DNA of 64,000 nucleotides from Candidatus Aldehydirespiratoraceae bacterium (GTDB lineage: Bacteria > Actinomycetota > Acidimicrobiia > Acidimicrobiales > Aldehydirespiratoraceae): NCBI GenBank assembly GCA_965249055.1, contig CBDFKX010000002.1:2957800-3021799 (forward strand), given 5' to 3'. Within the stretch, counting starts at the first letter, position 1, and each line of letters begins with the position of its first letter. The notes beneath the pieces were generated by a model. The model searched no databases, was not told the DNA's origin, and worked only from the letters and a program-made list of their open reading frames with translations. The translations under genes and the position numbers were made by a program. Shown one piece after another: positions 6,868-57,717 of this stretch.

Positions 6868-8282
6868 AGCCGGGCGTTCAGCCCTTCCCTCGCCAAGGGA
6901 TCAGCCGCTTCTCGGCCATGCGCCTTCAGCCAACCGCCCACGCGGTCGAGCACTTGGTCGACCCGCTTGAGCAGGTCGTCGATCACGGTGGCGTCTGCCA
7001 CCAACGGCGGTGCCACAGCCAACATGGCAGCACCTCTAGAGTCGGGCCGGACCAGAACGCGCGCCTCGCGCACAAAGCGTTCTAGAACTCCGCCCGGTAG
7101 TAATTCAGCGAACTCGTCGTCAGTAAGATCCGAACCGCTGCGGCGGTCACGCATCAACTCCACGGAATGGAAGTACCCGGCGCCCCGCACGTCTTTGACA
7201 CAACGATGGGATTCCATCAGCGCGCGCAAGCCGTTCTTGAGGCGGTCCTCGTTTGCCAGAACGCGGTCGAATACCTTTTCGTCGCGCATGGCGGTCATGT
7301 TGGCCACCGCTACCGCTGTGGCCACTGGGTGGCCGCCGAACGTGGCCCCGTGGACGAACATCGCAGCGGGCGAGTCCCACACCCGATCCACCAGCGAGTC
7401 CCGTACAAGCAAACCTCCCAGAGGCACGTATGCGCTGGTGACACCCTTGGCGAAGGTGATCATGTCCGGCACGACGCCATAACGCTCGCTGCCGAACCAG
7501 TGACCGAGGCGTCCGAACGAGTTGATCACCTCATCTGCGCAGAGCAGCACGCCGTAGGTGTCGCAGATGCGGCGCAGTTCTTGCCAATAGCCGTCGGGTG
7601 GGACCAGTGCTCCCCTGCCGTTCTGTACTGGTTCTGCAATCACCATGGCCACCGTCTCAGGGCCCTCGGCGAGGATCGCCTGCTCGACGGCTGTTACACA
7701 CGGCAGTTCTGAAGCAGGAACGCCCTCGGCAGAACAGCCGAGTGTGTTGTCTACGTGGCGCACAAACCCGGCGAGCATCGGCTCGAACGGATCGCGGAAG
7801 TTGGGAATGCCGGTCACGGTCAGCGCACCCAGGGTGGTGCCGTGATAGGCCCATCGACGTGCAATCACCTTTTGGCGACTCTCAGCGCCGTTCGCCAAGT
7901 GGTAACAACGAGCGAACTTGAGGGCGGATTCAACCGCTTCTGAGCCAGAGTTCACAAAGAACACTCGGTTGAGATCGGCGGGTGCCACCGACGCGATCAG
8001 CGACGACGCCTCGATGGACGAAGGGTGGGCGAAACTCCAGTTGGGGCTGAAAGCCAGTTTGTCCATCTGCTTGGCCGCAACCGCGGTCAGATCACTGCGA
8101 CCGTGGCCGAGGTTGGTGCAGAACAACCCGGAGAGCCCGTCCAGGTATTCGTTGCCCTCGGTGTCCCAGACGTAACAGCCTTCACCTCGTTCGATGACGA
8201 GCAGGTCGTCGCGTTGCCAAGCATCGCCACGCGTAAAATGCGGCACCAAGTGGTCCCGGGCCTTGGCTCTAATCTCGGTCAA
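6864..8282 (-). CDS. class-III (omega) aminotransferase, candidate taurine:pyruvate aminotransferase by context
   Basis: 472 aa with class-III blocks (VNSGSEAVESALKFAR, ADEVINSFGRLG, TFAKGVTSAYVPLG carrying the PLP Lys). TTG start preceded by GGGGGA. Substrate is inferred only from linkage to pta and xsc. Confidence 0.75.
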   Translation of the reverse strand: MTEIRAKARDHLVPHFTRGDAWQRDDLLVIERGEGCYVWDTEGNEYLDGLSGLFCTNLGHGRSDLTAVAAKQMDKLAFSPNWSFAHPSSIEASSLIASVAPADLNRVFFVNSGSEAVESALKFARCYHLANGAESRQKVIARRWAYHGTTLGALTVTGIPNFRDPFEPMLAGFVRHVDNTLGCSAEGVPASELPCVTAVEQAILAEGPETVAMVIAEPVQNGRGALVPPDGYWQELRRICDTYGVLLCADEVINSFGRLGHWFGSERYGVVPDMITFAKGVTSAYVPLGGLLVRDSLVDRVWDSPAAMFVHGATFGGHPVATAVAVANMTAMRDEKVFDRVLANEDRLKNGLRALMESHRCVKDVRGAGYFHSVELMRDRRSGSDLTDDEFAELLPGGVLERFVREARVLVRPDSRGAAMLAVAPPLVADATVIDDLLKRVDQVLDRVGGWLKAHGREAADPLAREGLNARL

Positions 8283-8403
8283 ATGATTCCCCCAGCAAAT
8301 CAGTTACATGTTAGCAAGAATTCGTTAGGAGGGCTAGCGCTATTGCGACGGTGACTAACTTAGAACTTTCCCACCCAGCGCACCGACGGCCGAAACTTGG
8401 AAA

Positions 8404-10818
8404 TCAGCTACGGAGCGGCACGCCGTGGCGTTTGGCCACCGCATCGATGCACTCTTGACGGACATCAGCCACCTCGGCATCAGTCAAGGTGCGATCGTGA
8501 GCCTGGAGCCGCAGACGATACGCCAGACTCCGCGTACCGGTGGGCAAACCCTCGCCCCGGTACACGTCGAACAACTCGATGTCGGTCAGCAACGTTTGCC
8601 CCGCTTTGCGTAGCGAACTCTCAACCGCCGCGGCAGCCACCTCATCTGGGACTTCGAACGCAAGATCGACATCGCTCGACGGGTACTTCGACACAGGGCT
8701 GTACTTGCGATTGCTGCGAGGGCCACCGAGCAGTTCACCCAAGTCCAATTCGAGCCACGCCACTCTCCCCGCGACGCCGTAGTTGTCGAGCACAACCGGG
8801 TCTACCTCGCCAACCACTCCCCTAGCGCGTCCTGCAACTATCACCTCAGCGGAGCGGGTAGAATGCAAGCCCGGGGGCGAGGCCGAGCGTAAGACAACAT
8901 TCGGCAAGCCCAACTCCCGCTCCAACAAATCAAGCACCGCCACCGCCTGTGGCGCCTCCTCACCAGCCAGCGCAACCGCCAGGTACTCGCGTTCGTCAGG
9001 GAGTAACTGGTCGGGCGGGGGTGGCAAATAAACGTGATCGATTTCGAACAGGCGCACGTCAGCGCTGCGATGAGACTGGTTGTAGGCAATCGCTCTGAGC
9101 TGACCCGGAAGCAGCGAAGTACGCAAGACAGACTGCTCGGCAACCAGAGGGTTGGACAAAGTCACCCCATTGTCGGCGAGGCCCGCTTTCAACAAGTCTC
9201 CCGGCGCTAGGAACGGCATGGGGAAGGTTTCGTCACATCCACATCCGACGAGAACCTGCCTGACCAAACGACGACGAACTTGGTAATCACTGAGACCTCC
9301 GGGTAGTTCTCCCCTGGGTACGGTTCTCACGATGTTCTCGTAACCGTGCAAGCGTGCCACCTCTTCGGCTACGTCAGTTTCGGTTTCGGTGTCCCAGCGC
9401 CAGGTAGGAATCGTGACGGCCAGATCCTCAGTGCCACTATCAGACACAACAACATCGGCGCCAAAACCGATGGAAGACAGATACCCCGCCATCTCGGACG
9501 CACTCAGGTCAGTGCCGAGTAACCCGTTGATCTTGGCGCTGCGAACGTTGAGCGGTGTTCGATCAGGGGTGTTCCCCGACACGTCGACATATCCGGATAC
9601 CGCGGTTGCTCCGAGTTCCGAAGCGAGTTGGATGAAGCGCTGCATTGAGCGATCAACATTCTCGCCCCAATCGGTGCCCCGTCGGAACCTACTCGAAGCC
9701 TCGCTCACAAGATTGAGCCGTTTGACAGTGCGCGAGATCGTCGGCGGATCCCACCACGCCATCTCCAAGAGCACATCAGTCGTCTGCTCAGAGATCTCGG
9801 TGGTAGCGCCACCCATGACTCCAGCCAAGCTGACGATCTCGTCGGACTCGTTGGTGATCACCCCGTCGTTGGCTATGAGCTCACGCTCCAGACCATCGAG
9901 TGTGGTCAACGTCTCACCGGGTACCGCCCGGCGCACCCGCAGGTGGCCATTGGGAATCGTGGCCAGGTCGAAAGTGTGGTTGGGTTGACCCAACTCGAGC
10001 ATCACGTAGTTGGAGATATCAACAATCGAGTTGAGCGGCCGCATTCCCGCCAATATGAGCCGGTCAGCGAGCCACTGTGGCGAAGTCTGTACGGTGATCC
10101 CACGCAACACAGTCGCAACGAACCGGCCGCACAGTGTCGGGTCGAGGATCTCAACGGTCAACAGCTCGTCAACACTGTCTCTATTAGCAGAGCCGCCACT
10201 CGAGTAGTGGTCAGCAGCAACGCTGTAATCAGGGAACGAGAAGTCGACCCCCAAAGCGGCGGCTAGATCGCGAGCCACTCCCGCTACCGACATGGCGTCG
10301 GGACGGTTGGCATTCACCTCAAGGTCCCACAACACATCGGGTACCAGACCAATAGCAGCCGCCACACCCATCCCGAGCTCCGCTTCGGGAACCACCCGGT
10401 CATTGAGCACAAGGATTCCCTCGTGGTCATCGCTGAGACCTAGTTCAGCACCAGAACAACACATGCCTGCCGACACTTCGCCGCGCATCTTTCGCTGTTG
10501 AATCTCCAAGCCGTTGGCCATGACGGTCCCCGGTGTGGCGAACGGGATCAGATCACCGACGGCCATGTTGAAGGCCCCGCAACACACCTGCCGCGCCTCT
10601 CCGTCGCCGGCATCCACATCGACGAGTTGGATTTTGTCGGCTGCAGGATGGGGCCTGAGATCGAGCACCTTCGCCAGTACCACCCCATCGACGATGTCAC
10701 CGATGAAAGTCATCTCTTCCACAGTCAGACCGAGCGCGCTCAGGGTCTCGCTCAAGTCGACCGGATCACCATCGATATCAGGCGCGAACTCACGAAGCCA
10801 CGACAATGTCACCTTCAT
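8404..10818 (-). CDS. pheT: phenylalanine--tRNA ligase beta subunit
   Basis: I place the start at the internal MKVTLSWLREFAP (ATG 10816-10818), which overlaps the pheS stop. The 62 codons upstream in the track ORF lie inside pheS. Confidence 0.9.
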   Translation of the reverse strand: MKVTLSWLREFAPDIDGDPVDLSETLSALGLTVEEMTFIGDIVDGVVLAKVLDLRPHPAADKIQLVDVDAGDGEARQVCCGAFNMAVGDLIPFATPGTVMANGLEIQQRKMRGEVSAGMCCSGAELGLSDDHEGILVLNDRVVPEAELGMGVAAAIGLVPDVLWDLEVNANRPDAMSVAGVARDLAAALGVDFSFPDYSVAADHYSSGGSANRDSVDELLTVEILDPTLCGRFVATVLRGITVQTSPQWLADRLILAGMRPLNSIVDISNYVMLELGQPNHTFDLATIPNGHLRVRRAVPGETLTTLDGLERELIANDGVITNESDEIVSLAGVMGGATTEISEQTTDVLLEMAWWDPPTISRTVKRLNLVSEASSRFRRGTDWGENVDRSMQRFIQLASELGATAVSGYVDVSGNTPDRTPLNVRSAKINGLLGTDLSASEMAGYLSSIGFGADVVVSDSGTEDLAVTIPTWRWDTETETDVAEEVARLHGYENIVRTVPRGELPGGLSDYQVRRRLVRQVLVGCGCDETFPMPFLAPGDLLKAGLADNGVTLSNPLVAEQSVLRTSLLPGQLRAIAYNQSHRSADVRLFEIDHVYLPPPPDQLLPDEREYLAVALAGEEAPQAVAVLDLLERELGLPNVVLRSASPPGLHSTRSAEVIVAGRARGVVGEVDPVVLDNYGVAGRVAWLELDLGELLGGPRSNRKYSPVSKYPSSDVDLAFEVPDEVAAAAVESSLRKAGQTLLTDIELFDVYRGEGLPTGTRSLAYRLRLQAHDRTLTDAEVADVRQECIDAVAKRHGVPLRS

Positions 10819-11819
10819 CAGAACTGCCTCAGAAACCGAACATCGTTGTTGACCAGTTCGCGAATGTCGTCGAGTTCGTGGCGCATGACCGCCAGACGAT
10901 CGATGCCAAAACCGAATGCGAAGCCTTGCCATTCGTCGGGGTCGATGCCGCAGTTGCGCAAAACGTTGGGATGCACCATGCCGCAACCCCCCAATTCCAG
11001 CCACGTTCCATCGGCGCGGGAAATATCGAACTCGGCGCTTGGTTCAGTGAACGGAAAATATGAAGGGCGTAGCCGGCTCTTCACGTCGCCACCAAAAAAG
11101 GTGTGTACGAACTCGTCGATAGTCCCCGCGAGGTCACCCATGGTTATCCCCCTATCAACTACCAGACCCTCAATTTGGTTGAAGGCGGGGAGGTGGGTCG
11201 CGTCGGCAGTGTCGGTTCTGAAGGTCCTGCCCGGCGCGACGATATAGATAGGTGGCTTTTGATTCTCCATCGTGCGGATCTGAACCGGCGAGGTGTGCGA
11301 GCGCAGCATTACCTCTTCGGGCTCACCTAAATCCACGAAGATCGTGTCGAAACTGCCTCGAGCCGGATGCCATTCAGGAATGTTGAGAGCCTCGAAGTTG
11401 TACCAAGCCGATTCAACTTCGGGGCCTTCGGCAACCGTGAAACCCATGCCTACGAAGACATCTTCGAGTCTGTCGCGGGACTGGGTGACAAGATGAAGCG
11501 AGCCGCGCCGTGCCTTTTGGCGGAATTCCGTGAGATCGAGCCGTTCAGCCTCAAGTTGGCGAGTTCGAGCGGCCTGGGCTAGGCGCTCACGGGCAGAAGC
11601 AACCGCCGCTTCAATCTCAGTTCGGATCTCGTTGACGGCTTGTCCGGTGGTTCTGCGTTGCTCTGGGGCTAGCGATCCGAGTTGCCGTTTGGCCAAAGTC
11701 ACTGCCGATTTCTTCCCCAAGAACTCAACATCAAGCTCTGCTAACGCGTCGAGGTCTTCGACTTCGGCCAGTCGAGCCTCCGCTTCAATAGCGGTCTGGC
11801 GGAGCGTCTCTATCATCAA
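10818..11819 (-). CDS. pheS: phenylalanine--tRNA ligase alpha subunit
   Basis: 333 aa with class-II motifs (FRTDTADATHLPAFNQIEG, GCGMVHPNVL). Confidence 0.9.
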   Translation of the reverse strand: MMIETLRQTAIEAEARLAEVEDLDALAELDVEFLGKKSAVTLAKRQLGSLAPEQRRTTGQAVNEIRTEIEAAVASARERLAQAARTRQLEAERLDLTEFRQKARRGSLHLVTQSRDRLEDVFVGMGFTVAEGPEVESAWYNFEALNIPEWHPARGSFDTIFVDLGEPEEVMLRSHTSPVQIRTMENQKPPIYIVAPGRTFRTDTADATHLPAFNQIEGLVVDRGITMGDLAGTIDEFVHTFFGGDVKSRLRPSYFPFTEPSAEFDISRADGTWLELGGCGMVHPNVLRNCGIDPDEWQGFAFGFGIDRLAVMRHELDDIRELVNNDVRFLRQF

Positions 11820-18646: not shown

Positions 18647-19549
18647 TTAAACAAACCGATCTTCGGGTGTTAGCCGGGCACCGTTGCGCCAGGCGAATGC
18701 AACCTGCCGTGCTCGGCCTTGCGCTTGCACTTCAAGCAAATCAATTCGTCCCTCGCCGGTAGCAACCGACACACCGCTGATCGATCCCGGCAAAGCGGCA
18801 GGCGTTGCTTCAGCAACAGGAGCATCAGCTACAGCGGTACGCCAGATCTTGAAATGTTGGTTGCGAAAGGTTGTCCAAGCGCCTCCGACTCGCACTTGCC
18901 GGTGAATCTGAACCGCCGGTTGTGACCAGTCGATATGACGATCCGCCGAGGTGATCTTGGCAGCGTAGACCGGTTCACCAAGTTGCGGTTCTGGCGGACC
19001 AAGCCCCTCAGCAAGCGCGTCGATCAACACTTCGGTGCCAAGCTTTACCAGCCGCGCTCTCAATGCGCCGCATTCTTCTTCGGGGTCGATCGGCGTTTCG
19101 GCTCGTCGATAAACGGCTCCGGCGTCGAGACCCTCGGAAACCGCCATTAAACACACTCCGGTCACTTCATCGCCGGCAAGGATTGCCCGCTCCACTGGTG
19201 CAGCCCCGCGCCAACGCGGCAACAGCGAGAAATGAAGATTGACCATCGACACCTGTTCGAGCGCCGATGGCGGGATGATTTCACCGTAAGCGACCACTAC
19301 ACCGAGATCGGCGGTGATTCCCGCCAAGTCTTCGAGATCGTCGCTCACGTCCAAACCAAGATCAAGGGCAGCAGCTTTCACGGGGCTTGGCTGAAAGGAC
19401 ACGCCTCGTCCTCGTCGGGTGTCGGGGCGTGACACGACCAATGCGATCTCGTAACCAGCGTCACAAAGTGCACGCAAGGGCGGCACTGCGGTGGCGGGCG
19501 TGCCGAGATAGACAATGCGCTGAACCTCCGCCGGTGGCGGAATGGTCAC
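18647..19549 (-). CDS. fmt: methionyl-tRNA formyltransferase
   Basis: 300 aa, NLHFSLLPRWRGAAPVERAI. Overlaps def by 4 nt. Confidence 0.9.
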   Translation of the reverse strand: MTIPPPAEVQRIVYLGTPATAVPPLRALCDAGYEIALVVSRPDTRRGRGVSFQPSPVKAAALDLGLDVSDDLEDLAGITADLGVVVAYGEIIPPSALEQVSMVNLHFSLLPRWRGAAPVERAILAGDEVTGVCLMAVSEGLDAGAVYRRAETPIDPEEECGALRARLVKLGTEVLIDALAEGLGPPEPQLGEPVYAAKITSADRHIDWSQPAVQIHRQVRVGGAWTTFRNQHFKIWRTAVADAPVAEATPAALPGSISGVSVATGEGRIDLLEVQAQGRARQVAFAWRNGARLTPEDRFV

Positions 19550-20133
19550 GGCAGCCTTAGACCTTCGCGGGCACGGTTACTCGGCGGTACGGTGCTTGCC
19601 GATCCAGTGCTTGCCGATCCAGTGCTTGTCGATGAGGGCATGGCCTCAGCCATTTGCAGGTCGCGGATTGCCTTCAGCGCGGTCTTGCGAGTGTCGGAGT
19701 CGAGTCGCTCGATCAGCAAGGTACCGTCGAGATGGTCGATTTCGTGTTGGAACAGGCGAGCCTCGAGTTCGTCCACCTCGAAGGACATTTCGTTGCCGTC
19801 GAGATCACGGCCAACCAGGTGGACTGTTTTTGGGCGAACTATTTCCCAGGTCAAACCCGGAACCGAGAGGCAACCCTCGTCATAGAGCCATTCGCCGTCG
19901 GATTCAACAATTTCAGGGTTGACGATAACCCGAGGTCCTTCACCCATGTCCCAAACAAACAACCGCTTCTGCACCCCAACCTGCGGAGCAGCAAGCCCAA
20001 TCCCTGGCGCCTCATACATGGTTTCGATCATGTCGTCTGCAAGACGCACCAGCGCGCCATCAATATCGTTGACCTGGCGCGCTTTCTGGCGCAAGACAGG
20101 GTCTCCAATGACACGAATGTCGTAACTAGCCAC
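19546..20133 (-). CDS. def: peptide deformylase with Ser/Thr/Gly-repeat C-terminal tail
   Basis: Motifs GIGLAAPQ, EGCLSVPG and QHEIDHLDG. The tail is ...SSTSTGSASTGSASTV. Confidence 0.9.
   Translation of the reverse strand: MASYDIRVIGDPVLRQKARQVNDIDGALVRLADDMIETMYEAPGIGLAAPQVGVQKRLFVWDMGEGPRVIVNPEIVESDGEWLYDEGCLSVPGLTWEIVRPKTVHLVGRDLDGNEMSFEVDELEARLFQHEIDHLDGTLLIERLDSDTRKTALKAIRDLQMAEAMPSSTSTGSASTGSASTVPPSNRAREGLRLP
19591..19635. repeat. 15-bp tandem repeat x3 inside the def 3' end
   Basis: GGTGCTTGCCGATCC / AGTGCTTGCCGATCC / AGTGCTTGTCGATGA. In frame, it encodes the (STGSA)-type tail. Confidence 0.9.
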
Positions 20134-20181
20134 CAGCTCAGGTTAGCGGGCGGATTCACTTGCAAACTCGAACTCAAGACC

Positions 20182-20826
20182 GTGGCTGCCAACGCGCCGC
20201 CGAGTACGGTCGAAGCTGTGGGGACCGCGCACTATTTTGATCAGGAGCCGACGGCGGCATCGAAGCCTGCGCCAGTAGAGATCAACCTCTTTGACGTGTC
20301 TGTGACCCTCACATCGGACCGGGGAGTGTTTTCGCAAGACCGGCTCGACCCTGGCACCAAATTACTGTTGACAGAAGCTCCTCCGGTCGACGACAACGCG
20401 GTGACACTCGACATTGGCTGCGGTTGGGGTCCGATTGCCTGCGTCACGGCGTTGCGAACCGGCGACGTGCGAATCTGGGCCATAGACACCAACACACGGG
20501 CCCGGACCCTGACCGAGATCAATGCCCGAGCAATAGGTGCTGCTGATCGCATCACCGTGGCGTCACCCGCCGAGGTCCCAGCGGGTGTTCGCTTTGATCG
20601 AATCTTATCCAACCCGCCGATTCGGATCGGCAAATCGGCGTTGCATCAACTGCTTGAGAGTTGGCTCAGCCGCTTGAACCCCGACGGTCAAGCTCATCTT
20701 GTTGTGCAAAAGCATCTGGGCAGCGATTCTTTGAATCGTTGGCTGATAGACCAAGGATTCCCAACAATTCGGTTGGTCAGTCGCTCGGGTTATCGCATAC
20801 TCGAAGTCAACCCACGGGAGGACTAG
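20182..20826 (+). CDS. class I SAM-dependent methyltransferase (RsmC/RsmD-like small-domain type)
   Basis: HYFDQEP..., SAM motif LDIGCGWGPIA and NPPIRIG motif. The start is uncertain (GTG at 20182 or 20218). The 5' part of track ORF 19654..20826 is antisense to def. Confidence 0.7.
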   Translation: MAANAPPSTVEAVGTAHYFDQEPTAASKPAPVEINLFDVSVTLTSDRGVFSQDRLDPGTKLLLTEAPPVDDNAVTLDIGCGWGPIACVTALRTGDVRIWAIDTNTRARTLTEINARAIGAADRITVASPAEVPAGVRFDRILSNPPIRIGKSALHQLLESWLSRLNPDGQAHLVVQKHLGSDSLNRWLIDQGFPTIRLVSRSGYRILEVNPRED

Positions 20827-21769: not shown

Positions 21770-22435
21770 ATGCAGACCGATCTGATCCGGCGGGCCGAGG
21801 TGCACGCGGCTCTGGGGGATCCGGTGCGGTTGGCCATGGTGGAGGATCTGGCCGCGAGCGACTGGTCGCCCGGAGAGCTTTCGATCCGCCACGGATTGGC
21901 CGGCAACCTGCTGGCTCACCATCTGGGCAGGCTGGCGCAGGCCGGCCTGGTGGAGAGGCTCATCTCCGGCGGGGACCGGCGCCGCCGCTACGTTCGGCTC
22001 AGACGCGAGGGGCTGTCCGACCTCGCGATCGGGGCTGTCCGCCCGGACGGCCGTGTGCTGTTCGTGTGCACCTGCAATTCGGCCCGTTCCCAGATGGCGG
22101 CCGCGCTCTGGCACGACCTGGTGGGCACCCCCGCCGCCTCGGCCGGTACCCGCCCGGCGGAGCGGGTGCATCCCGGCGCCGTGGCCGCCGCCGGGCGGGC
22201 TGGAATTAACCTCGCGGATACCTCGCCCACACAGCTCGACGGCGCTCTGCACGCCGATTTGACCGTCACCGTGTGCGATCGGGCCCACGAGGACCTGAAT
22301 CCGCCTGCGTCCTGGTGGCACTGGTCGATACCTGACCCGGTGGCCGAAGGCGCAGACGCAGCCTTCGAGTCGGCCTTGTGGACCCTCGACGACCGGATCC
22401 GATCGCTCGCCCGATCTTCCCTACCCGCAAGCTGA
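21770..22435 (+). CDS. ArsR-family HTH regulator fused to a low-molecular-weight-phosphatase-type arsenate reductase
   Basis: N-terminus LGDPVRLAMVEDL...SPGELSIRHGLAGNLLAHHLGRLAQAGLV (ArsR wHTH). C-terminus VLFVCTCNSARSQMAAALW (CX5R P-loop) ...TVTVCDRA. Confidence 0.8.
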   Translation: MQTDLIRRAEVHAALGDPVRLAMVEDLAASDWSPGELSIRHGLAGNLLAHHLGRLAQAGLVERLISGGDRRRRYVRLRREGLSDLAIGAVRPDGRVLFVCTCNSARSQMAAALWHDLVGTPAASAGTRPAERVHPGAVAAAGRAGINLADTSPTQLDGALHADLTVTVCDRAHEDLNPPASWWHWSIPDPVAEGADAAFESALWTLDDRIRSLARSSLPAS

Positions 22436-22449
22436 ATGAAAGGAGGCCC

Positions 22450-22875
22450 ATGACCACCGCAGCGAGTGCCCGGCCGGGGTTCCTCACGCGGACGGTCCAG
22501 CTCATCACTGTGCGCAACGCCGGGCGCTCTCAGATGGCGGCTGGCTGCCTGCGGCAGATGAGGGGCGAGCGGATCGACTTTTTTACCGGCGGCTTCGACC
22601 CTGGCCACAACACCGAAAAGGTGGTCGTGGCGGTCATGGCCGAGGAGGGCATCGGCATCTGCAGCGAGTACCCGAAGCCCTGCACCGATGAGATCGCCCG
22701 GGCCGCGGACGTGATGGTCACCACGGGCTGCGGTGGTGCCTGTCCGGTGCGACCCGGCGAACGCTATAGGCGCTGGGTGTTGGAAGATCCCTCCGACCAG
22801 CCCATCGAGGTCGTGACGGGCGTCCGCGACGAGATCAAGAGCCAGGTCGAAGCCCTGCTGGCCATCCTGAAGTAG
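22450..22875 (+). CDS. ArsC-like (LMW-PTPase family) protein lacking the P-loop cysteine
   Basis: AAGGAGG lies 4 nt upstream of ATG 22450. LITVRNAGRSQMAAG aligns with the canonical actinobacterial FVCVHNAGRSQMAAG, with Thr in place of Cys. The TTGCGGACP block is retained. Confidence 0.75.
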   Translation: MTTAASARPGFLTRTVQLITVRNAGRSQMAAGCLRQMRGERIDFFTGGFDPGHNTEKVVVAVMAEEGIGICSEYPKPCTDEIARAADVMVTTGCGGACPVRPGERYRRWVLEDPSDQPIEVVTGVRDEIKSQVEALLAILK

Positions 22876-22876
22876 T

Positions 22877-25800
22877 GTGATGCGGCGGATCGCTCCCATA
22901 GTGCTGGGCTTGGCCATCGCGATCGCAGTGGCGGGGGGTTGGCTGCTCGGCACTGACCGGGCCGCGGCGACAAGCCATCTGAGATTTGACCCGGCCCCGG
23001 CGGGCCTGGAGTGGACGGCGGGGTTCGCGAACTCCGATGTGCTGGCGGAGGGCACTGGGGGCACGGGCACGCTGTCGTACACGTTGCTGCAGAACGACGG
23101 GTCCGGCGGCACGCAGGCGCTGCCGACGGGGTTCAGGTTCGTTGGGGCAAACCGGAGGCTGTCGAGCACTACGGACGTGAGCACGGCCAACTCTCCGTAT
23201 TCGTTGGTGTACACGGTGACCGACGACAACCAGGTGTCGGCGACGGCGACGTTCACGGTGACGGTCAACGAGGCGCCGTTGGTTTCTCCGGGTGATTTGG
23301 GGTGGACAGCGAAGCATGCGAACTCCGATATGCTGCCTGCGGCGTCGGGGGGCACGGAGCCTTTGTCGTACACGTTGCTGGGGGAGCGCGACTCGACGCT
23401 GCCGACGGGGTTCTCGTTCGACGAGTCGGAGCGGAAGCTGACGAGCACTGATACTGTCGACACGGGCAACTATTCGTTGGTGTACACGGTGACCGACGAC
23501 AACGAGGCGTCGTATTCGGCGACGTTCAAGGTGACGGTGGCCGCGGCTGTGGAGCTGGTTTCTGATGATCCGGGTGATTTGGGGTGGACAGCGGGGCATG
23601 CGAACACGGCGGTGACGCTGCCTGCGGGCACTGGGGGCACGGGCACGCTGTCGTACTCGGTGGTGGAGTTCGGCACGGATGCGCTGCCGACGGGGTTCGT
23701 GTTCAACTCGTCGGATCGGAAGTTGTCGAGCACTACGGACGTGAGCACGGCCAACTCTCCGTATTCGTTGGTGTACACGGTGACCGACGACAACGAGGCG
23801 TCGTATTCGGCGGATTTCGATGTGACGGTCAACGAAGCTGTGTCGCTGGTTTCTGATGATCCGGGTGATTTGGGGTGGACAGCGGGGCATGCGAACACGG
23901 CGGTGACGCTGCCTGCGGGCACTGGGGGCACGGGCACGCTGTCGTACTCGGTGGTGGAGTTCGGCACGGATGCGCTGCCGACGGGGTTCGTGTTCAACTC
24001 GTCGGATCGGAAGTTGTCGAGCACTACGGACGTGAGCACGGCCAACTCTCCGTATTCGTTGGTGTACACGGTGACCGACGACAACGAGGCGTCGTATTCG
24101 GCGGATTTCGATGTGACGGTCAACGAAGCTGTGTCGCTGGTTTCTGATGATCCGGGTGATTTGGGGTGGACGGCGGGGCATGCGAACACGGCGGTGACGC
24201 TGCCTGCGGGCACTGGGGGCACGGGCACGCTGTCGTACACGTTGGTGGAGTTCGGCACGGATGCGGCTGCCGACGGGGTTCGTGTTCGACGAGTCGGATC
24301 GGGAGTTGTCGAGCACTACGGACTGTGAGCACGGCCGACTCTCCGTATTCGTTGGTGTACACGGTGACCGACGACAACGAGGCGTCGTATTCGGCGACGT
24401 TCAAGGTGACGGTGGCCGCGGCTGTGTCGCTGGTTTCTGATGATCCGGGTGATTTGGGGTGGACAGCGGGGCATGCGAACACGGCGGTGACGTTGCCTGC
24501 GGGCACTGGGGGCACGGGCACGCTGTCGTACTCGTTGAAGTGGAGTTCGGCACGGATGCGCTGCCGACGGGGTTCGTGTTCAACGGAGTCGGATCGGAAG
24601 TTGTCGAGCACTACGGACTGTGAGCACGGCCAACTCTCCGTATTCGTTGGTGTACACGGTGACCGACGACAACGAGGCGTCGTATTCGGCGGATTTCGAC
24701 GGTGACGGTCAACGAAGCTGTGTCGCTGGTTTCTGATGTTCCGGGTGATTTGGGGTGGACGGCGGGGCATGCGAACACGCCGGTGACGTTGCCTGCGGGC
24801 GTCTGGGGGCACGGGCACGCTGTCGTACACGTTGGTGGAGTTCGGCACGGATGGGGCTGCCGACGGGGTTCGTGTTCGACGAGTCGTCGCGGGAGTTGTC
24901 GAGCACTACGGACTGTGAGCACGGCCGACTCTCCGTATTCGTTGGTGTACACGGTGACCGACGACAACGAGGCGTCGTATTCGGCGACGTTCAAGGTGAC
25001 GGTGGCCGCGGCTGTGTCGCTGGTTTCTGATGATCCGGGTGATTTGGGGTGGACAGCGGGGCATGCGAACACGCCGGTGACGTTGCCTGCGGGCGTCTGG
25101 GGGCACGGGCACGCTGTCGTACTCGTTGAAGTGGAGTTCGGCACGGGTGCTGCTGCCGACGGGGTTCGTGTTCAACGGAGTCGGATCGGCAGTTGTCGAG
25201 CACTACGGACTGTGAGCACGCCAACTCTCCGTATTCGTTGGTGTACACGGTGACAGACGACAACGAGGCGTCGTATTCGGCGGATTTCGCGGTGACGGTC
25301 AACGAAGCTGTGTCGCTGGTTTCTGATGTTCCGGGTGATTTGGGGTGGACGGCGGGGCATGCGAACACGCCGGTGACGCTGCCTGCGGGCGTCTGGGGGC
25401 ACGGGCACGCTGTCGTACACGTTGGTGGAGTTCGGCACGGATGGGGCTGCCGACGGGGTTCGTGTTCGACGAGTCGTCGCGGGAGTTGTCGAGCACTACG
25501 GACTGTGAGCACGGCCGACTCTCCGTATTCGTTGGTGTACACGGTGACCGACGACAACGAGGCGTCGTATTCGGCGACGTTCAAGGTGACGGTGCAACGT
25601 GGCTGTGTCGCTGGTTTCTGATGATCCGGGTGATTTGGGGTGGACAGCGGGGCATGCGAACACGCCGGTGACGTTGCCTGAGGCGCACGGGGGGCACGGC
25701 GCACTTTGTCGTATTCGGTGGTGGAGTTGTCGGCACGGGTCGCTGCTGCCGACAGGTTTGGTGTTCACGGAGTCGTCGCAGCAGTTGTCGAGCACGACGG

Positions 25801-28125
25801 ACTGTGAGTCGCGGGTTCTCATACTTTGCGCTATTCAGTTGGATGTACAGTGACCGACGATCAACCGTCGTATTCGGCGGATTTCGCGGTGACGGTCAAC
25901 GAAGCTGTGTCGCTGGTTTCGGATCCGGCTGGCTTGAGGTGGTCGGCAGAGAACTGCGAACACGCCGGTGACGTTGCCTGCCGGCACGGGGGGCACGGGC
26001 ACGCTGGTCGTACTCGTTGGTGGAGGACGGCACGTCGATGGGCTGCCGACGGGGTTCGTGTTCGACGAGTCGTCGGATCGGGAGCTGTCGAGCACTACGG
26101 ACTGTGAGCACGGCCGACTCTCCGTATTCGTTGGTGTACACGGTGAAAGACGTCAACGAGGCGTCGTATTCGGCGACGTTCAAGGTGACGGTGCAACGTG
26201 GCTGTGTCGCTGGTTTCTGATGATCCGGGTGATTTGGGGTGGACAGCGGGGCATGCGAACACGCCGGTGACGTTGCCTGAGGGCACGGGGGGCACGGGCA
26301 CGCTGTCGTACTCGTTGAAGTTGTCTGACGGGTGCTGCTGCCGACGGGGTTCGTGTTCACGGAGTCGTCGGCGGCAGTTGTCGAGCACTACGGACTGTGA
26401 GTCGCGGGTTCTCATACTCTCCGCTATTCGTTGGTGTACACGGTGACCGACGATCAACGAGGCGTCGTATTCGGCGGATTTCGCGGTGACGGTCAACGAA
26501 GCTGTGTCGCTGGTTTCTGATGTTCCGGGTGATTTGGGGTGGACAGCGGAGCATGCGAACACGCCGGTGACGCTGCCTGCGGGCGTCTGGGGGCACGGGC
26601 ACGCTGTCGTACACGTGGTGGAGTTCGGCACGGATCGGGGCTGCCGACGGGGTTCGTCGTTCGACGAGTCGTCGGATCGGGAGCTGTCGAGCACTACGGA
26701 CTGTGAGCACGGCCGACTCTCCGTATTCGTTGGTGTACACGGTGAAAGACGTCAACGAGGCGTCGTATTCGGCGACGTTCACGGTGACGGTCAACTGAAG
26801 CTGTGTCGCAGTCGTTCGTTTCTGAGCCAGATCCGGGTGGTTTGGAGTGGACAGCGGGGCATGCGAACACGCCGGTGACGCTGCCTGAGGGTCTGGGGGC
26901 ACGGGCACGCTGTCGTATTCGTTGAAGTTGTCTGACGGGTGCTGCTGCCGACGGAGTTCGTGTTCACGGAGTCGTCGAGCGGCAGTTGTCGAGCACGACG
27001 GACTGTGGTCGCGGGTCTCCGTATTCGTTGGTGTACACGGTGACAGACGACAACGAGGCGTCGTATCGGCGGATTTCGCGGTGACGGTGAGGGAGGTGGC
27101 GGAGGTGGCGGAGGTTTTCTGGTGGTGGGTTTTCTGGTCGGCCGGTTCGGTTGCCTGTCTATGTCCCGGATCCGGGTGACTTGGTGTGGACGGCGGACGG
27201 CATGAATACGTCAGTAGTGTTGCCTGAGGGGGCGACTGCCCCGACGACACCGACAGTAGACAACGCGAGTAGGTCAGTCGTGCTGCCTGAGGGTTCGGGG
27301 GGCGTGGGCGCGTTGTCGTACTCGTTGACGTTGATTAACAGGTGGGCGCTGCCGTCGGGGTTCGAGTTCGCGTCCACACGGATGTTGACTGCGTCCGCAC
27401 AGATATTCTCGAGCATGCGCGCAATAGAGGCGGTCTCTCATACATTGCGTTATACGGTGACTGATGCTAGGCGCGTGTCAGCGTCACGGGACTTCACGGC
27501 GACGCTGGTGTCGTCGATCCCTGATGTAGGTCGTGATGCGCCGTATCGGCCGGCGGTGGTGTGGATGGTCGCCAACGGTATTGCCAGGGGATGCTCGCAA
27601 GATCGGTTCTGTCCTGACGACCAGTTGACGCGTGGCGAGTTCGTGACGTTCTTGTGGCGCGCGGTGGGCAGGCCCACGCCAGCTTATGCTGGTTCGGATG
27701 TCTACTCTGATGTTGTGGAGGGCTCGTATTCGGACTTGGCCATCGGTTGGGCAGCAGCCACAGGCCTGACCTTGGGTTGCTCTTCGGGACAGCCCGATGA
27801 TCCAGACTGGCGGTTCTGTCCCGCCGACAAAGTTACCCGGGCTCAGACCGCTGCATTCTTGTACCGCTTCCTGGGAGTCAAGCTTCGGCGCCCGCAGCCG
27901 TTGCCTCTTGAGGATGTGAGTCTTTACAGCTACTACGCAAACGCTGTCGCGTGGCTGCACGTCAACAACATCATGGCCCCCTGCGAACCAGACCGGTTCT
28001 GCCCGAATCAGAACCCGAGCCGGGCCGACTTGGCCACCTTCATGCACAGAATCGCCGCCACTCCGTCAAGCTGGGCCACCGACCGCGCCCCCCTGCCCCA
28101 ACTAGCACTGACCAACTCAAACTAA
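22877..28125 (+). pseudogene. giant cell-surface repeat protein gene (signal/TM N-terminus, ~15 Ig-like 97-aa repeats, three SLH-like C-terminal modules); frame broken repeatedly between ~24258 and ~27150
   Basis: The intact 5' ORF 22877..24328 begins MMRRIAPIVLGLAIAIAVAGGWLL and carries five repeats. The repeat is DLGWTAGHANTAVTLPAGTGGTGTLSYSVVEFGTDALPTGFVFNSSDRKLSSTTDVSTANSPYSLVYTVTDDNEASYSADFDVTVNEAVSLVSDDPG. The same repeat continues to ~27150 but hops between all three frames. The 3' ORF 27151..28125 has a last divergent repeat plus the SLH-like modules. The total length of 5249 nt is not a multiple of 3. Confidence 0.7.
23003..27177 (+). repeat. tandem array of 14 units of about 291 bp (plus a divergent 15th), with a ~590-bp two-unit higher-order repeat from 24451
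   Basis: GATTTGGGGTGGAC anchors (or variants) lie at 23003, 23294, 23576, 23867, 24158, 24451, 24747, 25041, 25337, 25632, 25931, 26231, 26531, 26839 and 27178. Units at 23576 and 23867 look identical: alternative-frame ORFs 23584..23856 and 23875..24147 give identical peptides. Confidence 0.9.
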
Positions 28126-55294: not shown

Positions 55295-55804
55295 AAATTC
55301 CCCTCCTAGGTAAATTGTCACCTTCACAGCCGGAGTCCTGAGGCTGGACCCTTCGCCGATGGCCGCGATATCGAATCAACGCGTATCATGCCGAATCGCC
55401 AGCCGGCGGTCTACACGATCTGAGCGCCCTCCCTCAAGAGTCTAGCGGTGATTCCGTACCATGAATCGTGGGATGCTGCGCTTCGGGCGCTGCCGCGTCG
55501 TGCTGTTCAACCCTCTGACCTTGGGAAACGCCGATCTCGCTCGGGTTGATCGTCACACACCTGTAATAATCTTTTCCGGATTCGGGCCGAATCCATTCCA
55601 CGGCCCAACAACTCCAACGCTCTAACCTTGGCGTTTGTTAATCCGCGCATACCCGACGAGGGCGGGGCTTGGTCGGTGCGCTTCGCGGCGCGAATTGCGC
55701 TCGATAACTGCTGACCTTGTGGTCTGAGACTAGCCGCAAGCCACTTGGGGGACGCTCGGACATCCACCGCGGCAGGGCATCCACGCCAGATATGTTCAAA
55801 CATC

Positions 55805-56220
55805 ATGTGGAAGGTGTTAACAACACCAGAGTACCGAACATGGTTTCGTGCCCTGCCGGGCAGGGACAAGGCACGCCTCGAACGAGCCCACGAACAGCTC
55901 GCATGATGGGCCCGCACTTGGGTTGACCCTACGCGGACACCGTCAAGGACTCCCGCCACGCCTACCTCAAAGAACTCCGAACACGCGGCTCCGTGCGAGC
56001 CTTCGACGCGTTCGATGAGCAACGCCGCGCCGTGCTGCTGTGCGGCGGAGACAAGGCCAAGGCCAAAAGAAGCGCCATGTGGTACAAGAAGATCGTGGAT
56101 CGCGCCGACAGGCTCTTGGACCGGCACCCGCGGCAATGGCGGCCACTTGGGCTCTTCCGGGCATCTATGGTTGGCAACGATTCGCAACCCCCGGCTTCGT
56201 CAGCACCCTCCTGGGCGTGA
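55805..56220 (+). pseudogene. RelE/ParE-superfamily (Gp49/HigB-like) toxin gene with one frameshift and one in-frame TGA
   Basis: Frame A from ATG 55805 reads MWKVLTTPEYRTWFRALPGRDKARLERAHEQLA* (stop at 55904-55906). Shifted by one base it continues MMGPHLG-TGA(55924-55926)-PYADTVKDSRHAYLKELRTRGSVRAFDAFDEQRRAVLLCGGDKAKAKRSAMWYKKIVDRADRLLDRH. This fits the family pattern GPxLGRPxVDTVKGSRH...LRILFAFDPxRxAILLLGGDK...WY, with Arg (CGA) expected at the TGA. Confidence 0.5.
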
Positions 56221-56841
56221 GCCATCGCGCGGGCCGGACCTACACCCGGTAGAAGAGCTGAACGATGAAGTTCGGCCTGCCTGATGCCGAATGGCTCTTC
56301 GCCGAGGTGGACGAGGAGTACCGCCAAATGGAAGCCCACCACGCGGCTAGCCAAGCAGCCGACCACTTTCGCCGAGCCGGCCGCAGACCGAGACGCTGAC
56401 GCACCCAGCGAACACCGACCGCCACCACCTGTGGGGAGTGGCAACGGAATTTCGAGCCATCCCCGCCGGTGCTGCCACCCCAATCCTGACACGTAAAGGG
56501 AATTTCAGTGATCGCCGTCGCAGCGGGCTACAGCTGGGACATTAACGACATCTTCCGACGGTTGGAACGGAACCGACCGGGACTTCCCGACGAACGAGGG
56601 CGAACTCCACCGGTGGATGCGACAGGTCGGCCATGATGGCCGGTTGTTGAAGTCAACATCCAACCGATGGAGGTTCTTAGTATGGCACAGCGGCTCAGTT
56701 GCGACGAACGCGCCTGGATCGAGGCGATGCGCGCCGCGGGGGTCAGGAAGCGTCCACCTCCTGGCGCGAAAGCACGATGAACCTCACCGGGGCACCCCAC
56801 TCTGATCCTTGAGAGTTGCGTCGGGCTTGCCTCCGCAGAAA

Positions 56842-57717
56842 TTACGAGCCAGGGACAGATTCGACGAAGAGCACCACGGTCATGGTTCCGCAGGCCAGGG
56901 CCGGACCGAAGGGAAAACTCCACGCCAGGAGTCTTGTGGGTCGACCCCCTTCAGCCTGCGGATCGGCTAGCACATCCCGATTCAACTTTCGCCTGAGAAC
57001 ACCAAGCAACAGACCTCCGAAAAGACCGAGAATGCTTGCCAGAAGCTGAGCCCAGAACACCAGGCGGACTACCAGTACCCAATCCGTCACAGAGTCCGAG
57101 TCTGAGCGCGTGATCCCCGCGGCCCAACCCAAGTTGAGTCCGAGCAGGAGTGACAACTTGACGTCGCCGAATCCCAGGCCCTGAGGCGAGATCAGATGCA
57201 CCACCAGCAGGAAACCGAAATAGACGAACATGCCGACAATCCCATACCCGACAACACTCAGATCGCCGGTAGCAACCGCTCCACACAGCATCGCCGTCAA
57301 TGACAGGCCCAAAGACCAGAAGACAAGCCGATCAGGAAGCCTGTAGCTGTACAGATCCACCACCGAAAGCGCCAACAACGCACCAACCAACACAAGCGGT
57401 GCAAGTGACTGCCAACCCCAACCGAAACGCAACACGACAACAACCCACAACGCAGAGGTTGCCGCCTCGACGCTGGGATACATCAACGAGATCTTCTTGG
57501 CGCAATACCGACATCGGCCGCTGAGCAACAACCACGACAACAACGGAATCGCCTCGTGGAGGGCCAGCCGGGCCTTGCACGAACCACACCGAAAGCGAAA
57601 CGACAGTGCCTCGCTGCGAGCGATCCGCTCAGCCAACATTGTCACTACCCCGCCAGCGATCAACCCACCAGCGGACACAGCAACGATCAGCGCCGTAATC
57701 ATGCTTCCGCCTCTCAT
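56842..57717 (-). CDS. prepilin peptidase (A24 family)
   Basis: 291 aa, multi-TM, N-terminal CGSC...CRYC zinc-like motif and GFGDVKL catalytic Asp block. Confidence 0.8.
   Translation of the reverse strand: MRGGSMITALIVAVSAGGLIAGGVVTMLAERIARSEALSFRFRCGSCKARLALHEAIPLLSWLLLSGRCRYCAKKISLMYPSVEAATSALWVVVVLRFGWGWQSLAPLVLVGALLALSVVDLYSYRLPDRLVFWSLGLSLTAMLCGAVATGDLSVVGYGIVGMFVYFGFLLVVHLISPQGLGFGDVKLSLLLGLNLGWAAGITRSDSDSVTDWVLVVRLVFWAQLLASILGLFGGLLLGVLRRKLNRDVLADPQAEGGRPTRLLAWSFPFGPALACGTMTVVLFVESVPGS

Follow-up and report, generated by a model that had tools for sequence, protein, structure and literature searches.

Frame-breaking lesions in the tandem He_PIG repeats of a putative surface-protein gene of a Candidatus Aldehydirespiratoraceae bacterium: chimeric consensus or pseudogene?

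The locus considered here raises the question of whether a long repeat gene whose reading frame is broken 41 times in the deposited sequence is a decayed gene or an intact one that has been written down wrongly. The gene lies in a 64,000-nt stretch (called the window below) of the genome of a Candidatus Aldehydirespiratoraceae bacterium (assembly GCA_965249055.1, contig CBDFKX010000002.1, positions 2,957,800 to 3,021,799). It is a single large gene at 22877-28125, with a signal-peptide-like start, 14 tandem units of ~291 bp, each of which encodes a He_PIG "putative Ig" domain (PF05345), and a C-terminus with an S-layer homology (SLH) anchor; all coordinates are those of the whole stretch, and the repeat gene is read on the + strand (Table 1). 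We give a probability of about one half to the reading that the deposited sequence is a chimera in which an insertion-biased consensus has mixed in-frame alleles, and that the true gene is intact and encodes ~1,700-1,750 aa. Most of the frame-breaking lesions are probably present in no single DNA molecule. The gene itself and its two-unit higher-order repeat are real.

Unit structure and lesions of the array

Measured between anchors (unit starts at 23003, 23294, 23576, 23867, 24158, 24451, 24747, 25041, 25337, 25632, 25931, 26231, 26531 and 26839), the 14 units are, in order, 291, 282, 291, 291, 293, 296, 294, 296, 295, 299, 300, 300, 308 and 339 bp long, reproducing all of the lengths given by the original prediction, which was made from the sequence alone, and every lesioned unit is longer than 291 bp. 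Two unit types alternate, type A (...ATFKVTVAAAV) and type B (...ADF(D/A)VTVNEAV). In the identity matrix the same-type identity is 97-99% among units 5, 7 and 9 and among units 6, 8 and 12, dropping to 87-95% for the diverged units 10, 11, 13 and 14, and type A is 92-93% identical to type B (86-95% across all A-B pairs). With a higher-order repeat taken to mean that units i and i+2 are closer than units i and i+1 over at least three blocks, the pattern extends over five A-B dimers and is weaker in the diverged 3' units. The antisense ORFs 24709-24906 and 25299-25496 stand 590 bp apart. Thus, both the alternation of unit types in a ~590-bp higher-order repeat and the antisense offset are as had been predicted. 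Units 3 and 4 (23576-24157) are 100% identical over 291 bp, a sign that the 5' end of the array underwent duplication or conversion very recently.

The frame changes were counted by a frameshift-aware dynamic programme that aligned each unit with a protein profile of intact units, consisting of units 1-4 of the window and the orthologue units of the related loci L001 and L068 (see below), and indel alleles were counted with unit 4 as the reference. Units 1-4 have no frame change. Units 5-14 have 2, 4, 3, 4, 4, 3, 5, 5, 6 and 5, respectively, 29 of them being net +1 and 12 net +2/-1. No uninterrupted ORF thus leads from the signal peptide to the anchor; the frame is open only at 22877-24328 and 27091-28125, and every + frame is closed repeatedly between 24328 and 27090. 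The gene as deposited therefore shows the frame disruptions relative to intact homologues by which a pseudogene is recognised. Along the recovered native path of the units, the frameshift-aware alignment has no stop codon, and the amino-acid sequence that is recovered is close to the family consensus. The lesion load, 2 per unit on the 5' side, climbs to 5-6 per unit on the 3' side, and by our own arithmetic the four clean units would all be the 5'-most ones in 1 of 1,001 cases if placed at random.

Relative to unit 4, there are 37 distinct frame-changing indel alleles, with 26 insertions and 11 deletions (for example, -G at 25220, -T at ~26615, which the aligner called -G, and -T at 27066). 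The predicted statement that all lesions are insertions thus holds for most but not for all of them. Most of the insertions are not homopolymer extensions. Against 66 substitution alleles in units 5-14, the 37 indel alleles give a ratio of 0.56, as compared with 0.10 in units 1-3, 0.09-0.17 in the arrays of L068 and L143, where all indels are compensated, and 0 in L001.

It is noted that the lesions recur at homologous sites. An additional T at unit position 165 occurs once in each of the units 5-14, with CGAGCACNACGGACTGTG being found in 10 of the 10 units 24158-26839, where 0 matches are expected by chance, and with the T-less form of the motif being found only in the units at 23003, 23576 and 23867 (units 1, 3 and 4). 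Similarly, GGGCGTCTGGGGG is present in the units at 24747, 25041, 25337 and 26531 (units 7, 8, 9 and 13), and GGATG(C/G)GGCTGCC in those at 24158, 24747 and 25337 (units 5, 7 and 9). All three distributions are those that had been described before. Such same-site recurrence is far beyond chance and, as had also been argued, excludes random long-read errors. A context-dependent basecalling error as the source of the T was rejected as well, because units 3 and 4 share the context over more than 30 nt and have no T.

In unit 7 (24747, 294 bp) three +1 events add up to +3, and the ORF 24702-25253 reads through. The same recovery of the frame had been predicted for unit 9 (25337), where it does not take place, because a fourth +1 at ~25594 gives 295 bp with no return to frame; unit 7 is the only unit that nets a multiple of three without a further lesion. 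The out-of-frame segment reads VWGHGHAVVHVGGVRHGWGCRRGSCSTSRRGSCRALRT where an intact He_PIG domain has its conserved core (LSY and LPTGF). The shift sites, GGAC-T-GTG, GCG-G-CTG and GGGC(A to GT)CTGG, have no runs and no slippery heptamers.

At some sites the lesions differ from unit to unit. The site before CTGCCG has at least five alleles over the units, including GCGG, GGGG, GCTG, TGGG and CGGGG, the PAG/TGG site has three lesion alleles (+G, +C and -C), and two codons hold three to seven different lesion alleles among the units. At other sites the lesions are shared: three are common to units 7 and 9, one to units 9 and 11 (+1 at 254), one to units 10 and 12 (T at 215) and two to units 6 and 8 (AA at 87 and +G at 132). 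Note also that not every departure of units 10, 12 and 14 from unit 4 is a lesion; some are older, native in-frame variants like those of orthologues (LKLSDG, GSHTLRY and DDQPSYS). The variant YSLKLSDG has the counterpart YTLKLSNGSALPTGF in L001, and VAGSHTLRY has the counterparts ADSHTLRY in L001 and GSHTLRY in L068.

An important point is that the lesions stop where the array stops. According to the ORF list and to the single-frame alignment with orthologues, there is no frame lesion in the 1,035-bp C-terminal frame 27091-28125. With, as a conservative choice, 15 of the 25 single-unit indel alleles taken as independent, in 2.65 kb, the density is ~5.7 per kb, so that under uniform decay ~5.8 lesions would be expected in the C-terminal frame as compared with the 0 seen, with a Poisson P(0) of ~0.003.

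Proposed merging of mixed in-frame alleles

The observations can be explained if, in units 5-14, an assembler or polisher merged reads of two or more in-frame allele families, which would belong either to strains present in the same sample or to repeat copies that had been aligned out of register. Given two alleles set apart by clustered substitutions, or by small indels that form a compensated pair, a consensus favouring insertions would keep both extra bases, and the outcome would be a "union" sequence that is one base too long. The same allele mixture would produce the same error in every homologous unit, which would give the recurrence at the same sites, the prevalence of +1 lesions and the lengths above 291 bp of the lesioned units. 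The true locus would encode an uninterrupted secreted, SLH-anchored surface protein with ~15 Ig-like domains. Union k-mers such as CGAGCACTACGGACTGTGAGCACGGCC, GGACTGTGAGCACGGCC, GCGGGCGTCTGGGGG, GGATGCGGCTGCC and TTCGACGGTGACG would be the merged product, and the parental reads would fall into in-frame classes, for example one with GGACGTGAGCACGGCC and the other with GGACTGTGAGCACGCC. The original prediction had named mis-polishing of collapsed repeats as a possible alternative to its own reading; we consider it at least as likely, in the refined form of the merging of two in-frame allele families. That the merging took place in software and not in the cell is, in our estimate, about an even bet.

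The anatomy of the lesions contains several examples that look like such unions, together with compensated pure alleles, which exist in the array itself for the T at 165, the T at 215 and the AA at 87. Unit 8 offsets its T at 165 by -G 9 nt downstream (25220), which gives the in-frame reading TTDCEHANSPY, and unit 14 does so by a nearby deletion, which gives TTDCGRGSPY; units 5-7, 9, 11 and 13 have the T and yet retain the G that is deleted in unit 8. A -4 after the T at 215 lets unit 10 read in frame as DDQPSYS, and unit 12 has only the T. Units 6 and 8 combine the VVEFGTD variant with the start of the orthologue-like LKLS variant, which is the AA at 87. Moreover, TTCGACGGTG in unit 6 contains the A of GAT plus the CG of GCG, and GCGGGCGTCTGG contains GGC and GCG overlapped. 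From the unit sequences, alleles of this kind would be the parents of the unions. Such junctions are not expected from in-register homologous recombination, because in-frame units cannot give +/-1 junctions, and out-of-register recombination is expected to give +1 and -1 equally.

The proposal is consistent with the surroundings of the array, the errors being restricted to the repeated, variable locus with clean unique flanks, and the one other frameshifted gene of the window being an accessory toxin. About 35 other genes tile the window with open frames, short gaps and typical overlaps of 4-30 nt, and 24 of them have full-length Pfam coverage, including PheS, PheT, Fmt, Def, RsmB, MetK, CoaBC, the shikimate-pathway enzymes and RuvX. 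These open frames and the Pfam coverage imply that the base accuracy outside the array is high, and general sequencing noise is thus rejected. Moreover, divergent alleles of this gene do exist in close strains that share a sample: the L068 and L143 orthologues, which come from one ENA sample (ERZ18545484) and have hifiasm-style contig names, are 96% identical, with 179 substitutions, 2 in-frame indels and 1 frameshift between them.

In partial-order "heaviest bundle" consensus, the longer path is favoured once the minor allele exceeds about one third. It has been reported that metaFlye and metaMDBG HiFi assemblies hold indels without any read support, with thousands of genes hit (Trigodet et al., preprint, 10.1101/2025.04.22.649783). 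The present locus resembles the errors of that report in that its lesions are indel-dominated, break ORFs and stand at a variable repeated locus only, the rest of the megabase contig being clean, and in that co-occurring close strains are documented for a relative of the source genome. It differs from them in the uniform T of ten units and in the neighbour-wise sharing of lesions, which are atypical of random consensus errors.

If lesions arise where in-frame alleles differ, they should fall at positions that vary among the in-frame units, and 23 of the 37 lesion alleles do so, against a background of 40% (p = 0.006). With a tolerance of 1-3 nt this association is weaker (p = 0.05-0.26), which is the first of several points that weigh against the merging of alleles. 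The ten identical Ts stand in successive units, with more than 30 nt on each side identical to the T-less units 3 and 4, and a single origin followed by copying explains them more simply than parallel consensus errors do; for most of the T-bearing units there is no obvious pair of parental alleles. The sharing of lesions tracks neighbourhood and dimers (7/9, 9/11, 10/12 and 6/8), as inheritance predicts. Reads are well anchored at units 13 and 14, which border on unique sequence, and yet these two units have some of the highest lesion loads; this argues against simple mis-registration, not against a mixture of strains. Were the assembler hifiasm-meta, as it is for L068 judging from the contig name ptg000649l, consensus merging would be unlikely. 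Finally, two +1 shifts in the toxin gene, described below, could equally mean real insertion-biased decay. A test of the codon position and synonymy of the differences in lesioned units is uninformative, because the in-frame units already differ mainly non-synonymously (6 synonymous versus 30 non-synonymous differences in units 1-3) and their variable patches have no third-position bias.

If the lesions are an artefact as proposed, the locus is a diagnosable example of a long-read metagenome consensus corrupting a hypervariable repeat gene within an otherwise accurate megabase contig, and such loci would be miscounted as pseudogenes, with the surface adhesins of symbionts being under-reported. 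Similar cases could then be flagged without reads, by an excess of +1 changes, lesions in repeats only, codons with multiple lesion alleles, compensated pure alleles nearby and a lack of nonsense codons.

Possible decay of a real gene and other explanations

By contrast, the original prediction preferred the explanation that the frameshifts arose once in a real gene and were then copied. In its fuller form, a frameshift inactivated the gene, the lesioned A-B dimer was multiplied by unequal recombination and homogenised by gene conversion, and later lesions came from recombination-associated, error-prone or template-switching synthesis within the repeats only, so that nothing more than a truncated 482-aa secreted fragment without the SLH anchor could be made. 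Chimeric consensus and pseudogene are both known kinds of phenomenon, and we hold this second explanation to be a serious contender, if a tentative one. Besides its strongest support, the identical T of ten units, absent from units 1, 3 and 4, and the nested, neighbour-wise sharing in which units 7 and 9 have three lesions including the T in common, it accounts for the clean units at the 5' end and the load rising towards the 3' end, which fit progressive truncation with selection on the translated part. The accurate flanks are consistent with it, and related long-read metagenome-assembled genomes (MAGs) contain even more uniform arrays that were assembled without error. Moreover, the relative L068 has a frameshifted copy (+G at 9999) with an intact copy in a co-occurring strain, and the window contains another decayed gene, the Gp49-like toxin.

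The likeness to pseudogenised tandem-repeat adhesins and to satellite-like concerted evolution lies in the alternating units, the higher identity of i/i+2 than of i/i+1 and the shared lesions. The difference lies in the insertion-rich non-homopolymer spectrum, the multi-allelic codons, the lack of nonsense codons and the untouched unique 3' part. Published surveys report decay of bacterial pseudogenes to be deletion-biased, with slippage at runs. Based on decay, lesions would be expected in all untranslated parts, along with nonsense codons and a deletion-biased slippage spectrum, and here the part that would have been untranslated for longest, the C-terminal frame, has 0 lesions (P ~0.003 if the process were uniform), nonsense codons and larger deletions are absent, and insertions outnumber deletions, mostly outside homopolymers. 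In addition, the ratio of indels to substitutions is 3-6 times that of the family's natural in-frame arrays, the same codons bear three to seven different lesion alleles, and recombination among in-frame units would give no +/-1 in register and equal numbers of +1 and -1 out of register. Note also that two units have compensating deletions 9-14 nt away from the T, in a gene on which selection would no longer act.

Thus, the copying that had been proposed is borne out in so far as recurrence and sharing partly follow the dimers, and a single origin for each lesion is not established. Decay plus copying is doubted in view of the clean C-terminal frame, the multi-allele codons, the high share of indels, the non-homopolymer insertions and the lack of nonsense codons. 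The pseudogene explanation needs an additional mutational process that is restricted to the repeats. A dead array evolving in the manner of a minisatellite, with the frameshift-bearing 590-bp dimer being amplified and template switching making clustered non-homopolymer +1s while the 3' kilobase is left untouched, would provide one, and we regard this scenario as doubtful. If it were true, the locus would show repeat-specific, insertion-biased frameshift mutagenesis occurring naturally in a bacterium, with the +1 insertions arising at a rate well in excess of the genomic background. More generally, if the lesions are real they would represent post-mortem expansion of a repeat array together with a repeat-specific mutational process, which would be of moderate interest for repeat evolution, with no wider consequence.

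Two further explanations, in which the sequence is real and functional, are together improbable, and mixed or unlisted possibilities deserve about as little weight. In the first, the gene is still expressed as one protein, either because out-of-frame stretches are tolerated or because the ribosome or RNA polymerase shifts at the recurrent sites. The return of unit 7 to frame and the read-through of ORF 24702-25253 would fit this. Across 24328-27090, however, with all + frames closed repeatedly, ~41 shifts would be needed, and the shifted stretch removes the LSY and LPTGF core, so that the suggestion that selection tolerates the out-of-frame segment is left unsupported. Programmed frameshifting and a contingency locus are set aside, since the shift sites have no slippery motif, homopolymer or short-repeat tract; expression as one protein is therefore very improbable. 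The weakest explanation, that units 5-14 are silent cassettes serving as a reservoir for gene-conversion antigenic variation of the 5' units in the manner of vls, pilS or msp2, is suggested by variant untranslated units standing directly 3' of translated units of the same family in a surface protein and by a fine-scale mosaic between unit variants that suggests conversion, but it has hardly any likelihood, because the window has no separate complete gene copy and no complete expression site distinct from the cassettes, the would-be site being incomplete with its SLH anchor lying beyond the silent units and not joinable in frame, and because the orthologues are single uninterrupted ORFs.

Relatives, gene architecture and neighbourhood

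The closest relatives, as seen in scans of GTDB genomes and of metagenomes, are Acidimicrobiia MAGs, with best matches of 65% in the GTDB genome scan and 67% in the protein-guided metagenome scan; several of the matched contigs or lineages are presumably sponge-associated, to judge from record titles. The orthologues belong with the He_PIG (PF05345) or cadherin-like Ig-repeat SLH proteins of Acidimicrobiia (L001, L068/L143 and L069), and share with the present gene the signal peptide, the tandem units of 93-98 aa, the motifs DLxWTAG, LxY, LPTGF, LSS, Y(T/R)VTDxN and F.VTV, the degenerate last unit and the SLH C-terminus, with 64-67% C-terminal identity. They differ from it in having single open frames, or one frameshift in the case of L068, versus the 41 frame changes here.

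The comparison with orthologous loci that had been recommended did yield intact versions. The L001 orthologue, with 65% C-terminal identity, has an open frame of >2,487 aa, and its array consists of 23 units of 279 bp with 95% identity, 0% indels and a three-unit (840-bp) higher-order repeat. The L143 orthologue (L143 6001-10572) is intact with 1,523 aa. In the L068 orthologue (6997-11578), one additional G within a GG run at L068 9999 splits the frame. The intact arrays of L001, of L143 and of a second repeat gene of L068 (see below) indicate that intactness is the norm in the family and that long-read pipelines can assemble such arrays, and they count in favour of the merging of alleles at the present locus. 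The SLH loci L002-L011, tried as further orthologues, are paralogues instead and are uninformative on the lesions.

Searches aimed at the source organism itself gave little. No assembly of the same species was found in any collection searched. Exact-protein look-ups for the 483-aa ORF, PriA and P0001 gave nothing on record, neither the T-bearing nor the T-less form of the T-site motif had a match in a scan of metagenomes, and a search with the out-of-frame ORF 24702-25250 found nothing. In three protein searches, the only matches at 100% were the source's own 482-aa and 281-aa products, with the next at 64% and 50%.

Several side observations concern the relatives. The L001 orthologue (L001 1-7481) runs off the start of its 2.56-Mb contig, which means that the break in this assembly falls within the array. 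IS21 elements stand on both sides of the L068 copy, and upstream of the L143 copy there is an IstB_IS21 fragment. Near the L068 orthologue, at L068 14427-21578 on the - strand, there is a second giant repeat gene, intact, of >3,217 aa with ~21 units of 276 bp, for which no Pfam match is on record.

The features of the repeat gene are collected in Table 1. Tandem He_PIG domains are identified by Pfam and by the alignment of the units with orthologue units, PF05345 matching the 483-aa open part in four stretches (E 1.9e-20). The translation begins MMRRIAPIVLGLAIAIAVAGG, which is signal-peptide-like as judged from its residues, and the L068 and L143 orthologues begin likewise (MRRIALIVLGVGAIATGVLLLGTGQAPATS). 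The SLH anchor domain is present at the other end, where C-terminal residues 125-310 align with many SLH proteins; in tblastn a single frame suffices to align the C-terminal part with orthologues, with 67% identity over residues 5-322 and 65% over residues 3-323. The source's own annotation of the repeat gene consists of just two products, P0020 (482 aa), which is 100% identical to the N-terminal open part, and P0001 (281 aa), which is 100% identical to the C-terminal part.

Table 1. Positions in the window of the repeat gene's parts and of its lesions
Feature	Position	Strand	Remarks
Open N-terminal part	22877..24328	+	483 codons plus stop; ORF list, He_PIG Pfam
Signal-peptide-like N-terminus, MMRRIAPIVLGLAIAIAVAGGWLLGTDRAAATS	22877..22975	+	Putative, read off the translation
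Units 1-4 (starts 23003, 23294, 23576, 23867)	23003..24157	+	All in frame
Units 5-14	24158..27177	+	Five A-B dimers, 41 frame-changing events; unit alignment
A-B dimers, 589-647 bp	24158-24746, 24747-25336, 25337-25930, 25931-26530, 26531-27177	+	Identity matrix
First lesion, extra G (GGATGCGCTGCC to GGATGCGGCTGCC)	24265..24266	+	Brings TGA 24326-24328 in frame
Recurrent T (GGAC-GTG to GGACTGTG)	24324, 24619, 24914, 25211, 25504, 25803, 26103, 26396, 26702, 27004	+	One per unit 5-14
Interval with the last frame change	27090..27120	+	At linker with GGAGGTGGC tandem copies; frameshift-aware alignment
Open, lesion-free C-terminal frame	27091..28125	+	Last degenerate He_PIG-like unit and SLH anchor; 1,035 bp
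SLH Pfam match (PF00395)	~27517-27642	+	E 1.6e-10, in ORF 27151-28125; Pfam

In the linker at 27088-27150, after the last unit, GGAGGTGGC stands in ~2.5 tandem copies and a TTTTCTGGT motif is repeated. Translated in the final open frame, the linker gives GRWRRWRRFSGGGFSG, similar to GDGRWRG of the L068 orthologue. Across 21770-24328, which takes in an ArsR-LMWP fusion, an LMWP arsenate-reductase-like gene and the repeat gene, third-position GC is 0.81-0.82, compared with 0.62-0.77 elsewhere in the window; the overall GC is raised there too, and the GC skew is strongly positive across 22-28 kb. This high-GC stretch may be an acquired island.

Elsewhere in the window, the only other broken gene seen is a Gp49/HigB-like toxin gene at 55806-56220 (+), in which two +1 shifts, GCA(T)GATGGG and GGGTTG(A)CCC (with the additional base in parentheses), stand ~30 nt from each other and divide the gene among three reading frames; neither is in a homopolymer, and the signature is the same as in the array. 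The region 55375-56842 has a low coding score and a strong AT skew. Rfam has no match within the window, and for PriA the Pfam match is to the N-terminal domain only. Finally, we note that the mechanical ORF 19654-20826 (+), in which the MTS methyltransferase domain covers only residues 217-383, overlaps the genuine peptide deformylase gene at 19546-20139 on the opposite strand, so that the start of the methyltransferase gene must be after ~20140.

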